64,000 bases of DNA from Chthonomonadaceae bacterium. Lineage in GTDB: Bacteria; Armatimonadota; Chthonomonadetes; Chthonomonadales; Chthonomonadaceae. A program made the translations under genes and the position numbers. Under the pieces are notes generated by a model. It made no database searches and was not told the DNA's origin. It saw only the letters and a program-made list of their open reading frames with translations. Location: positions 1,888,100 to 1,952,099 of the forward strand of contig CBDFGA010000004.1 in the NCBI GenBank assembly GCA_965246955.1, given 5' to 3'. Below are positions 32,986-38,321 of this stretch, piece by piece (within the stretch, counting starts at the first letter, position 1; each line of letters begins with the position of its first letter).

Positions 32986-33195
32986 ATGGAAGACGAACTT
33001 GAACCGGAATATGATTTAATGGCTTTAAAAGTGCGACGCATGGGAGCGCAGCGGGAGCGTTTCGGCAACGCCGCTGTGATGCTTGAACCCGATGTGGCGC
33101 TGGCTTTTCCGAATGCCACAGCCGTCAATGAAGCGTTGCGCTTCCTGATTCGCGTCACGAAAGACAACGCCAATACGCGGCAAGAAGCGGCTTGA
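32986..33195 (+). CDS. brnA: BrnA-like antitoxin (RHH/CopG-like)
   Basis: Immediately downstream of brnT. C-terminal AVNEALRFLIRVT motif shared with the fused copy at 37535. Confidence 0.65.
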   Translation: MEDELEPEYDLMALKVRRMGAQRERFGNAAVMLEPDVALAFPNATAVNEALRFLIRVTKDNANTRQEAA

Positions 33196-34187: not shown

Positions 34188-35147
34188 TTAATGTACTTTC
34201 GGATCAGTCTCCGCTGTCTGCGGTTCGACCCGATTGATACACACTTGCTCATGCAGCGGCAAGACTTTGGGCGCTCCTTTGGAGAAACGACCCGGCTTGC
34301 GGGCATACGCTTGCTCTAAAGTTTCCTGCCGCGCCTGCTGAACGGCAGCGGCTTTTCCCATGTGAACCATTTCCGGGGTCAGCAACGCAATGCCGGTATG
34401 GTACTGCTGCGTGTTATAGAACGTCAGAAACGCCGCGCAAAACGTCCGCGCTTCCGCAATGCTATCAAAATGACCGGGAAACTGAGGCGCATATTTCACC
34501 GTCTTGAACTGCGCCTCCGAAAACGGGTTGTCATTGGAAACGCGCGGACGCGAGTGCGAACGGGTCACGCCCAGATCACAAAGCAACTCCGAAACCGTTT
34601 TAGAGACCATCGGCCCGCCCCGATCCGCATGAAGGGTGAGCGCATCGCGAGAAATCCCGTGACGCTGGCAGGCCGTTTCGATCAGTTGCGCCGCCAGATG
34701 TTGACACTCCCGTTCGGAGACAAGCCAGCCGACCACGCAGCGACTGAAAATATCCAGCACGACATACAGGCGGTATCCCTGTCCTTTGGCGGGGCCGCGC
34801 AGTTTGGTGATGTCCCACGTCCACACCTGGTTGGGCGCGGTGGCGAGAAGCACGGGGCGGGTATGTTTTTGGTGGCGCGATTGCCGCCTCCTTTCGGCAA
34901 CCTGTTTGTTTTCGCGCAAAAGCCGATACATCGTCGCGATTGAGGCCAAATAGCAGCCTTCGTCGAGCAACGCGGCGTAAACCTGGCGAACCGACCGATC
35001 CAAAAAGCGTTCCGAGTGCAGATGCGCGAGCAGTTCCGCTTTTTCCGCCGCCGAAAGGCTTTGGGACGTTGAATTTGTCCGCAGTCCCAAAACCAACTGA
35101 CCGCCGTTTCGCTGACGATAGAAAGTCGCCCGGCTTTTGCCCACCAC
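34188..35147 (-). CDS. IS3 transposase OrfB (DDE integrase core)
   Basis: rve domain motifs (WTWDITKL, YVVLDIFSRCVVGW, HADRGGPM, SRPRVSNDNPFSE). Confidence 0.85.
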   Translation of the reverse strand: MVGKSRATFYRQRNGGQLVLGLRTNSTSQSLSAAEKAELLAHLHSERFLDRSVRQVYAALLDEGCYLASIATMYRLLRENKQVAERRRQSRHQKHTRPVLLATAPNQVWTWDITKLRGPAKGQGYRLYVVLDIFSRCVVGWLVSERECQHLAAQLIETACQRHGISRDALTLHADRGGPMVSKTVSELLCDLGVTRSHSRPRVSNDNPFSEAQFKTVKYAPQFPGHFDSIAEARTFCAAFLTFYNTQQYHTGIALLTPEMVHMGKAAAVQQARQETLEQAYARKPGRFSKGAPKVLPLHEQVCINRVEPQTAETDPKVH

Positions 35148-35203
35148 CGCGCAGGCTCTTTTGATGCCCGTGAAGCGCGCGGTCTCTGCGATGAACGACG
35201 CGG

Positions 35204-35587
35204 CTATCCGGTCGGCAGCGTGAGGTTCATCAAGTCGGAAAGTTTTTTTTGGAGTTCCACGAGCGCTTTGAGTTTTTGGTTCTCCAACTGGAGGGCTTGC
35301 AGAGTTCGGGCGTCCTGCTGGCGTTGGGCTGCTCGCTCTTTTCGCTTCTGCTTTTGGCGCGGGTCATTTTGGGCGACGAGTTTTCCCTCTTCGTACTGCT
35401 TTCGAAAGGAAGCGAGAGTGGAAGAGTAAATGGCCTCGCGGCGCAGGATGGTTCCGAGTTGTCCGCGCTCGGTGCATTGGTCGGCTTCGCGCAGGATGCG
35501 AAGTTTGTCGGCGACGGTGAAGCGGCGGCGGCTGGCAGGCTGGCTGACGTGCGGGTCAGGCAACAGGCGGATATTCAGGTCAGACAT
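35204..35587 (-). CDS. IS3 transposase OrfA (HTH)
   Basis: HTH_Tnp_1-like N-terminus, leucine-zipper-like C-terminus (LQLENQKLKALVELQKKL). Confidence 0.85.
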   Translation of the reverse strand: MSDLNIRLLPDPHVSQPASRRRFTVADKLRILREADQCTERGQLGTILRREAIYSSTLASFRKQYEEGKLVAQNDPRQKQKRKERAAQRQQDARTLQALQLENQKLKALVELQKKLSDLMNLTLPTG

Positions 35588-36418: not shown

Positions 36419-37498
36419 GTGCAGACATTGATGGGGTTGAATACAAAAGAATTAGAGCAGGTCGCGCAGGAGTTGGGGCAGCCCGCCTATCGGGGGCGGC
36501 AGATCGCTTCCTGGATTTACAAGCGGGGCGCAGAGTCGTTTGAGGCCATGTTGGACTTGCCGCGCGAGTTTCGGACGCGGCTGGAAAATCAGTGCGCGGT
36601 CGGGGCTTTGGATGTCGCGCACCGGGACGAGTCGGCGGACGAGACGGTGAAATACGTGATGTCGCTGTGGGACGAGCAGACGATTGAGAGCGTGTACCTG
36701 CCCTATGCCGAGCGCGTTTCCGTTTGCCTTTCCACGCAGGTCGGGTGCGCCGCTGGCTGCACTTTCTGCGCGACGGCGCAGGGCGGGCTTTCGCGGAACC
36801 TGACGGCGGGCGAGATTGTCGGGCAGTTTTTGAAGATGCAGGCGGTCAGCGAGCGGCGAATCTCCCACGCGGTCTATATGGGAATGGGCGAACCGCTGTG
36901 GAATTACGAAAATACGGTGAAAAGCCTGCGGCTTATCGGGGAAGAAATCGGCGTTTCGCTGCGCAATCTGACCGTCTCGACCGTCGGCGTCGTTCCGGGC
37001 ATCCTGGCGCTGGCAAAGGAAACGATTCCGATTACGCTGGCCCTCTCGCTCCACGCCCCCAACGACGAACTCCGGGCTAAACTGATTCCGACGGCGCGAA
37101 AATGGAAACTCGACGAAATTCTGGACGCCTGCGACGTATACACTAAAAATACCGGGCGCGACCTGACCTTTGAATACCTGCTGATTGGCGGCGTCAATGA
37201 CAGCGCGGAACACGCCCGCGAACTGGCGGCGCTTTTAAAGCGTAAAAAATTGCCGGGTAACGTCAACCTGATCCCGTTCAATTATGTTGAAACATCGCAG
37301 GGTTTTCGACGTCCTGAAAAAGAGAATATCGTTCGTTTCCGCGCCGAACTGGAAAAAGCGGGGCGCGTCGCTACCCAGCGCATGACGCGGGGACACGCTA
37401 TCGCCGCCGCTTGCGGACAGTTGCGCCGCGAAGTCAGCAAACACGCGCCCGCCCCGCGCCGTATAGAAAACGTGATACCGCTACAGGCCAATGGATAA
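36419..37498 (+). CDS. rlmN: 23S rRNA (adenine2503-C2)-methyltransferase RlmN (radical SAM)
   Basis: CxxxCxxC radical-SAM motif (CAAGCTFCATAQ), RlmN N-terminal region. GTG start. Confidence 0.9.
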   Translation: MQTLMGLNTKELEQVAQELGQPAYRGRQIASWIYKRGAESFEAMLDLPREFRTRLENQCAVGALDVAHRDESADETVKYVMSLWDEQTIESVYLPYAERVSVCLSTQVGCAAGCTFCATAQGGLSRNLTAGEIVGQFLKMQAVSERRISHAVYMGMGEPLWNYENTVKSLRLIGEEIGVSLRNLTVSTVGVVPGILALAKETIPITLALSLHAPNDELRAKLIPTARKWKLDEILDACDVYTKNTGRDLTFEYLLIGGVNDSAEHARELAALLKRKKLPGNVNLIPFNYVETSQGFRRPEKENIVRFRAELEKAGRVATQRMTRGHAIAAACGQLRREVSKHAPAPRRIENVIPLQANG

Positions 37499-37534
37499 TC
37501 TCAGCCAGATTCAAGATCACACGGAAAACTCAGT

Positions 37535-38035
37535 ATGGAATTTGAGTGGGATGAAACGAAAGCGCAGACTAATTTTGTGAAGCATGGCGTCACTTTCTAC
37601 GAGGCGCAGGAGATTTTTGATGATCCACTTTCCGGGCTTTTGTCTGACCCGGATCATTCGAACGAAGAAAAACGCTCTGTTATTATTGGCATGACCGACA
37701 AAAACCGCCTGCTTTTTGTTTCGTTTGCCGAGCGGGATGAGACAATACGCATCATCAGCGCCCGCGAAGCAACGCGCAAAGAAAACGCTATGAGGATCAA
37801 CCCTGAATCGGATTTAGACGATGAATTGCGCCCGGAATATAACGAGGAAGACATGAAGAATATGACACGAGGCAAATATGTGGGCCGCGTCAAGCGAAAG
37901 TGTCCGCCGACCGTGCAGTTGGAGGCAGATGTCGTAGGCGCTTTTCCTGATGCCGCCGCAGTGAACGAGGCGCTGCGTTTCCTGATCCGCGTGACAAATC
38001 AGAATCTGAAAACTCCGCCAGGTGAGTCCGTATAA
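37535..38035 (+). CDS. BrnT toxin fused in-frame to BrnA-like antitoxin domain (single 166-aa ORF)
   Basis: N-terminal half FEWDETKAQTNFVKHGVTFYEAQEIFDDP...IISAREATRKE (BrnT). C-terminal half ...ELRPEYNEED...AVNEALRFLIRVT (BrnA-like). No stop between them. Confidence 0.7.
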   Translation: MEFEWDETKAQTNFVKHGVTFYEAQEIFDDPLSGLLSDPDHSNEEKRSVIIGMTDKNRLLFVSFAERDETIRIISAREATRKENAMRINPESDLDDELRPEYNEEDMKNMTRGKYVGRVKRKCPPTVQLEADVVGAFPDAAAVNEALRFLIRVTNQNLKTPPGESV

Positions 38036-38075
38036 GCCCGCGCCAGCCGACTGGCGCGTGGAAGCGAGAAGAGTC

Positions 38076-38321
38076 ATGACAAAAAATTGTCCCTGGTGCG
38101 GTCACGCGATGCCGCCCGATTCGATTGCGTGCGAAAAATGCAAATGGACGCGGAACCGGCCTAATATGCGGCCTGCCATTCTTGCGTATAGTTTTTTTAT
38201 TCTGCTGTGCGCCGTCCTTGCGATTGCGGCGATGCGGTGGGTCAGCAGTAATACGGGAAACACGCGCCCGCCGCTCAATGTCATAGCGCGGAATCTTATC
38301 GAAATGCGGGCGGCGAAATGA
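38076..38321 (+). CDS. Small zinc-ribbon membrane protein
   Basis: CPWCGH...CEKCKW ribbon followed by one TM helix. Confidence 0.4.
   Translation: MTKNCPWCGHAMPPDSIACEKCKWTRNRPNMRPAILAYSFFILLCAVLAIAAMRWVSSNTGNTRPPLNVIARNLIEMRAAK

Follow-up and report, generated by a model that had tools for sequence, protein, structure and literature searches.

EzeT of E. coli is a single-chain toxin-antitoxin that is conserved and characterised, with a zeta kinase as its toxin, and its fold and activity are unrelated to those of BrnT. CapRel(SJ46), a toxSAS protein, carries a toxin and a neutralising domain in one polypeptide and is neutralised in cis (PMC9712102). Among BrnT-BrnA systems, 28 prokaryotic and four eukaryotic fusions have been published, which carry BrnA/CopG-type ribbon-helix-helix (RHH) or HTH domains (PMC11980606, mBio 2025). 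The locus described here lies in a 64,000-nt stretch of DNA from a Chthonomonadaceae bacterium, hereafter the window, and resembles BrnT-BrnA systems in that its toxin half is a clear BrnT by HMM and by fold and its toxin comes first. It differs from them in that its antitoxin has no match to PF14384 and in that both parts sit in one polypeptide. Unlike the published fused brnTA mono-gene modules, it demonstrably arose by a recent 4-nt frameshift and its orthologues are unfused, and the VNEALR and PEYDFS motifs of its antitoxin type were found in none of the published fusions (PMC11980606). With CapRel(SJ46) it shares the combination of toxin and neutralising domain in one chain, and with it a presumed neutralisation in cis; however, fold and activity are unrelated, and CapRel(SJ46) is conserved and functionally characterised, whereas the window fusion is known from its sequence. 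The locus is a new, private instance of the already described BrnT-antitoxin fusion, and its origin is explained by a 4-nt slippage deletion.

An ORF of 166 aa with an ATG start is present as the original prediction described, and the reading of it as an in-frame fusion of a BrnT toxin and its cognate antitoxin was borne out by the ORF list, by the match to PF04365 and by the 48% match of its C-terminal part to the free-standing antitoxin of a second, paralogous locus in the window (Table 1). The protein record identical to the ORF (P0001) derives from a single 2.96-Mb contig and is a database singleton.

Table 1. Features of the fused and paralogous brnT loci, with positions in the window
Feature	Position	Strand	Description	Basis
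Paralogous free-standing BrnT, 91 aa	32706..32981	+	GTG start	PF04365, E 1.5e-26
Paralogous free-standing antitoxin, 69 aa	32986..33195	+	same uncurated family as the C-terminal half of the fusion; frame +1, 4 nt past the brnT stop	
Sigma-70-like promoter match	37472..37499	+	GTGATA-16-GATAAT; inside the rlmN end, 36 nt 5' of the brnT ATG	consensus scan, weak
Fused ORF	37535..38035	+	BrnT(1-83), junction N84-A85, antitoxin M86-V166, then stop codon	ORF list
BrnT (DUF497) ribonuclease-toxin domain	37535..37783	+	aa 1-83, ending at the conserved E83	Pfam, PDB matches, AF2, Foldseek
Deletion site	37778..37785	+	AAAGAAAA against AAAGAAAGAAAA or AAGGAAAGAAAA in three relatives; placement within the repeat ambiguous	DNA alignments
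Relic of the ancestral brnT 3' end	37780..37806	+	frame +2: RKRYEDQP-stop, TGA at 37804-37806	three-frame translation
Antitoxin ORF, 81 aa	37790..38035	+	own ATG at 37790-37792 (Met86 of the fusion)	free-standing homologues

Residues 5-83 of the fusion match the Pfam model BrnT_toxin (PF04365) with an E-value of 7e-27 and 94 bits (cut-off 34.5), over positions 1-77 of the 77 in the model, and the sequence matches of this half in the PDB, 7vd7_A (E 2e-11) and 3u97_A, are solved BrnT-family toxins. Foldseek recovered the same two structures with the predicted model of the fused chain (7vd7_A, TM 0.77, E 3e-7; 3u97, TM 0.76, E 1e-4; TM on target). Moreover, the columns conserved across the BrnT family (W5, K9, N13, K16, H17, D38, G52, R72, R77 and E83) are all kept. 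The native BrnT tail (..KER+xYExx-stop, at a length of about 91 aa) is absent: the chain continues after E83 with N-A-M-R-I-N in place of the native last eight residues, among which is the Tyr found throughout the family in the ER+xYE tail. The earlier description of this half as a complete BrnT is thus correct for the Pfam domain and incorrect for the last eight residues of the native tail, the lack of which could fully inactivate the toxin. The closest BrnT (P0002) is a free-standing protein of 91 aa with 94% identity that ends ..ATRKERKRYENQS, and P0006, P0009, P0010 and P0011 are likewise free-standing BrnT proteins of 91 aa. Tails of free-standing BrnT proteins read RKRYENQS, RKRYETQP, RIRYENQP, YEYENQS and RKLYEDQP. 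Among GTDB species representatives, the best match stood at 59%.

By its position and its homology to free-standing partners of BrnT, the C-terminal half is assigned as the cognate antitoxin. The nearest antitoxins (P0123-P0125) are free-standing, 82 aa long, 79-81% identical and start at the residue aligned with M86, while free-standing homologues across P0123-P0130 have 77-82 aa and about 57-80% identity and begin MxxNPESDL.DELRPEY. The Met aligned with residue 86 of the fusion is invariant in an alignment of 40 sequences. The motifs of the family are ELRPEY, RGKY, V-L-E-x-DV and AVNEALRFLIRV, within a fuller pattern ELRPEYD..RGKY..V.LEPDVA.AFPDA.AVNEALRFLIRVTKEN. With 382 matches at E<=1e-3, this is a widespread BrnT-associated antitoxin family brought to light here for which neither Pfam nor NCBIfam has a curated model. 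Its members (P0123-P0242 and the two window antitoxins at 37790-38035 and 32986-33195) are labelled 'hypothetical' or, wrongly, 'YjgA (DUF615)'.

The C-terminal half had been called BrnA-like in the original prediction. Searches of this half against Pfam and NCBIfam gave no matches, BrnA included, and the BrnA model PF14384 (DUF4415) matched neither of the two window antitoxins at E up to 10. Across 40 antitoxin homologues the same model gave one faint match (E 0.13); in this test, genuine BrnA partners from other brnT loci scored from E 1e-20 to 3e-9. An hhalign comparison of the antitoxin family with a set of BrnA sequences gave a probability of 65% (E 6e-5, 55 columns), which hints at a distant tie, and the register was that expected for BrnA, with an acidic Y-D-F/S motif followed by a strand and then two helices. 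In AF2 monomer modelling the antitoxin has two C-terminal helices without a confident strand, and a sequence-profile search for a solved relative in the PDB found none. On these comparisons the family is perhaps, at best, a distant relative of BrnA, and the term BrnA-like would be a defensible analogy rather than a statement of membership.

Additionally, tandem arrangements of the antitoxin were seen. One contig of a relative (L082, 5925-6450; ENA ERZ25070695 ctg114731) has a truncated brnT remnant adjoining an ISL3 transposase, followed by a 149-aa tandem double-antitoxin ORF, and there is a separate family of double-antitoxin proteins of about 130 aa, one cluster of which has 47 members. Proteins listed with L082 and the tandem antitoxins are P0004, P0137, P0133 and P0144.

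The paralogous locus in the window keeps the two parts as separate genes, as had been predicted: they are parted by TAA-GACG-ATG, read directly from the DNA, and lie in different frames (offset 280 nt, +1). Its BrnT is 51% identical to residues 1-83 of the fusion (E 5e-29) and its antitoxin 48% identical to residues 94-160 (E 8e-16). The exact protein of this 69-aa antitoxin is also on record.

A recent stop-codon loss or a moved start had been proposed as the origin of the fusion. The event is indeed recent, given the relic of the old tail and the unfused relatives; its cause, however, is the loss of 4 nt from an AAAG repeat that precedes the antitoxin ATG, and in the old frame the TGA is still there. 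Three relatives were aligned with the window at this site (L001, L168 and L169), and all three carry the extra 4 nt, so that one unit of the AAAG tandem is gone in the window alone among the four sequences. Specifically, L001 reads CGCAAAGAAAGAAAACGCTATG where the window has CGC----AAAGAAAACGCTATG. L001, which encodes P0002, is syntenic with the window, having rlmN upstream and shared genes downstream; the two are 92% identical in DNA, and the 4-nt gap is the sole frame-changing difference between them in brnT and the junction. L168 is a further syntenic relative, and L169 carries an intact operon with a BrnT of 91 aa and an antitoxin of 80 aa. On the extra 4 nt, L001 and L168 are backed by L169 and by the tails of five more homologous proteins. 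Toxin and antitoxin are separate polypeptides at all three orthologous loci and at the paralogous locus, but not in the fused ORF. Judged from these alignments, the deletion is the derived state.

Restoring the 4 nt in the window yields a BrnT of 91 aa with the length and tail of P0002, P0006, P0009, P0010 and P0011. The current junction frame reads ..SAREATRKENAMRINPES.., and frame +2 still reads RKRYEDQP-stop. The antitoxin ATG is embedded in the Tyr-Glu codons (TATGA) of the old tail, 14 nt before the old stop and in frame +1, and because the antitoxin overlaps the end of brnT in this frame, any net -1 indel that falls after the final conserved BrnT residues and before its ATG joins both ORFs. 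The relic tail, the old stop and the internal ATG are unaltered, which indicates a very young event. Codon differences between the window and L001 are 10 synonymous and five non-synonymous in brnT and eight and two in the antitoxin, and this comparison exposed no further disabling mutations in either half. Two other routes to the joined frame were considered and rejected. Stop-codon loss or read-through was ruled out since the old TGA persists in the old frame and the paralogous genes are out of frame too, and programmed frameshifting or recoding is not indicated, the junction having no canonical slippery heptamer and nothing else pointing that way.

The contigs of L001 (1769-3390) and L168 (2200-2500), both from ENA ERZ26165376, are of low coverage (labelled 4x and 3x) and have defects of their own, namely an rlmN that is split, a brnT whose frame shifts in the N-terminal part and an antitoxin broken by two 1-nt insertions. 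These frame defects are most likely long-read consensus errors arising from the low coverage, and they call for caution in frameshift-based inference from such contigs.

A set of 160 loci sampled regardless of fusion was examined, 80 from GTDB species representatives and 80 from JGI metagenome contigs. BrnT ORFs had 87-100 aa in all 33 GTDB loci looked at first. The antitoxin type of the window was present in 23 of the 160 loci, with none of the 23 fused and 20 in frame +1, and many of the surveyed brnTA loci resemble the window locus in that the antitoxin start overlaps the toxin 3' end. A search with the fused protein of 1.84 billion cluster representatives gave 7,919 matches at E<=1e-3; among the best 150 of these, 23 contained both halves in one stretch. 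The fused state is not common to the relatives of the window ORF, as for each half the closest relatives are free-standing, but more than 20 fused cluster representatives were found elsewhere. In the JGI metagenomes, the junction pattern had no match in exact or degenerate form, and a protein-based metagenome scan returned relatives at no more than 62% identity.

Fused ORFs in the databases are mostly singletons, and P0008, P0250 and P0290 are visibly scrambled inside BrnT. Two others, P0003 (L083/L084) and P0005 (L085/L086), have the same antitoxin family as the window and frameshift fusions of their own, via a GA repeat, the GAGAGAGAG run, in the former and an A run in the latter. In both, frame +2 still shows the old tail and stop (..EKEFYEES* and ..KNAYEEN*, respectively). 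Identical copies of each came from at least two contigs, and those of P0003 from two different samples. A 197-aa 'long BrnT' in a Gemmatimonadota MAG (L035, 3001-3592; JAPPNN010000040.1) was rejected as a fusion: having lost its stop codon, this BrnT reads on without a change of frame through a BrnA gene that is intact and lies in another frame.

We also identified a diverged clade of fused proteins with 12 representatives (P0033, P0248, P0249, P0251, P0253, P0255, P0282, P0309, P0311, P0324, P0339 and P0377). These have less than 50% mutual identity, a junction ..E[RK]RxYM[NDK].. and the C-terminus ALRQLIAEGRxP, and none of the published BrnTA fusions (PMC11980606) has their motifs. At one locus of this clade the fused gene stands alone, with no free antitoxin gene following it. 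Two fused representatives from Acidobacteriota MAGs, P0260 and P0395 (the latter in the P0324 cluster), go by the NCBI name 'BrnT family toxin'. The clade also includes multi-repeat chains, with the orders A-T-A (267 aa), T-A-A (218 aa) and T-A-T-A (374 aa), where T is toxin and A antitoxin. P0247, P0265 and P0349 are listed beside the fused clade. The window ORF resembles members such as P0033, P0248 and P0324 in its domain families, their order, the place of the junction and a similar linker length; in contrast, the clade is old and has diverged while fused. With 37-44% identity to the clade, the junction KENAM and the C-terminus ALRFLIRVTNQN, the window ORF is not a member, and this distance, together with its nesting among unfused relatives, indicates an independent and recent origin of the window fusion.

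The fused chain was modelled with AF2 from an alignment anchored by overlapping fragments of the window ORF, giving a mean pLDDT of 76 and a pTM of 0.59. Residues 1-80 of the BrnT half were modelled at pLDDT 78-91, the linker (residues 81-99) below 50 and the antitoxin part at 65-82. Antitoxin residues 26-35 (RGKYVGRVK; residues 111-120 of the fusion) reached pLDDT 81 and formed a beta-bridge in the fused chain against about 58 in the antitoxin modelled alone, a comparison between runs that had different alignments. The difference is no more than suggestive of this segment docking on BrnT in cis.

Our preferred account is that a recent slippage frameshift of an ordinary bicistronic module has probably produced a tolerated single-chain toxin-antitoxin that is neutralised in cis. 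The ancestor was an ordinary bicistronic type II toxin-antitoxin operon, toxin gene first, with a brnT of 91 aa, from which one AAAG unit was lost 5-12 nt upstream of the antitoxin ATG, most likely via replication slippage. As the loss of 4 nt amounts to a -1 frameshift, ribosomes on brnT now enter the antitoxin frame, and the encoded product is BrnT(1-83)-Asn-Ala-antitoxin(1-81). In this chain a disordered linker, about 20 residues long, would tether an intact toxin domain to its own antitoxin, and such tethering would bring about neutralisation in cis at 1:1 stoichiometry. This would explain why the cell tolerates the mutation, whereas an indel that abolished antitoxin synthesis would not survive. 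With termination-reinitiation coupling lost, free antitoxin would arise solely via internal initiation at Met86, upstream of which there is no strong Shine-Dalgarno sequence. Addiction and differential-stability behaviour are probably lost or blunted, in that selective turnover of the antitoxin would set no separate toxin free short of proteolytic cleavage of the linker; the original argument that a covalent fusion would remove the differential-stability logic is a reasonable one.

That the fusion is an assembly artefact is unlikely. The organism would then carry AAAGAAAGAAAA and two overlapping genes, and the gap would be a long-read consensus error in an A-rich repeat. Consistent with such an error, P0001 is known from its one contig, the site is a short tandem repeat, indel errors are common in the related metagenome contigs and an independent copy of the junction was not found in the JGI metagenome collection. 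However, the loss of a whole 4-nt unit fits replication slippage better than it fits consensus errors, which in homopolymers are of 1 nt. The window, with 58% GC, moreover has a coding density of 88%, ORFs as long as 885 aa and, immediately upstream of the fusion, an undamaged rlmN, and this density and the long intact ORFs indicate an assembly that is not riddled with indels. The identical recovery of the analogous slippage fusions P0003 and P0005 from more than one contig also speaks against an artefact. A second reading, that the locus is a decaying pseudogene in which the replaced BrnT tail and 83 extra residues inactivate the toxin while the locus is being lost, is highly improbable. The replacement of the last eight native residues, family-wide Tyr included, would agree with decay, as would the preponderance of singletons among fused database ORFs and the scrambled BrnT of P0008, P0250 and P0290, but the Pfam domain is complete (77/77) with every conserved column kept, neither half has acquired further disabling mutations, and the conserved fused clade ends its BrnT tail near the same point, at the Y-M junction, yet persists.

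Selection for a single-chain module, for instance an auto-inhibited RNase serving as a stress or phage-defence gene and released by proteolysis or another trigger, is distinctly unlikely for this lineage, although it has precedents. A clade that diverged while fused demonstrates that fusions are not invariably dead ends, and the window fusion could on this ground be under selection: the 12 clade representatives have their fusion at an equivalent position (..ERRxYM..), one of their genes stands alone, the ISAR-to-PEY spacing is similar (22 residues here versus 26 in P0248), both halves of the window ORF are intact, and the published BrnT-BrnA fusions were called likely functional (PMC11980606). 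On the other side, the window ORF falls outside that clade, the nearest relatives of both its halves are unfused, and the untouched relic tail, old stop and internal ATG mark it as very young. The PADLOC defence models gave no match, and the neighbourhood consists of housekeeping genes, namely rlmN upstream and genes for an ABC transporter of the Lpt type, plus an IS3 element. There is no sign of selection for the fused state in this lineage, where the ORF is one of many sporadic young fusions of a sort that the overlapping layout of the genes readily yields, and a defence role and the suggested domesticated nuclease are likewise unsupported here.

For this genome, the slippage-born fusion is of little importance, as one of two neighbouring brnT modules has become one continuous ORF, and the toxin in it is probably neutralised permanently. 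Its broader value is modest and lies in giving, at nucleotide resolution, a route to fused toxin-antitoxin genes, namely slippage where the two genes of a toxin-first operon overlap out of frame, a route also seen in several unrelated lineages. Such operons give rise to fusions repeatedly and now and then fix them. It also suggests that catalogues of toxin-antitoxin fusions may contain, besides a smaller number of truly conserved families, recent products of frameshifts and perhaps sequencing errors. A more far-reaching reading, which we consider rather unlikely, is that the out-of-frame overlap lets -1-equivalent indels within a tail of about 20 nt recur as viable, cis-neutralised fusions, some of which are occasionally fixed into conserved one-gene modules, even of the T-A-T-A type, with a function of their own, and that the window locus captures a single-chain toxin-antitoxin being born in this way. 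If this were true, comparing the window allele with the unfused orthologue, at 92% identity, would amount to a natural before-and-after experiment on the origin of fused toxin-antitoxin and defence proteins.

Regarding the surroundings of the two brnT loci, a promoter consensus scan found two sites against 0.8 expected, which is weak evidence, and no operator-like inverted repeats were found 5' of brnT at either locus. An Rfam scan of the window gave no RNA families. Between the loci lies an IS3-family element (34191-35587, minus strand) composed of orfA (HTH_Tnp_1) and orfB (rve integrase core). Finally, a small ORF downstream of the fusion (38022-38321, plus strand) has a weak treble-clef/DUF2116 match and a hydrophobic segment. 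With a GTG start it would share 14 nt with the 3' end of the fused ORF; its orthologue begins MPKNCPWCGH, which makes the ATG at 38077 the probable start.
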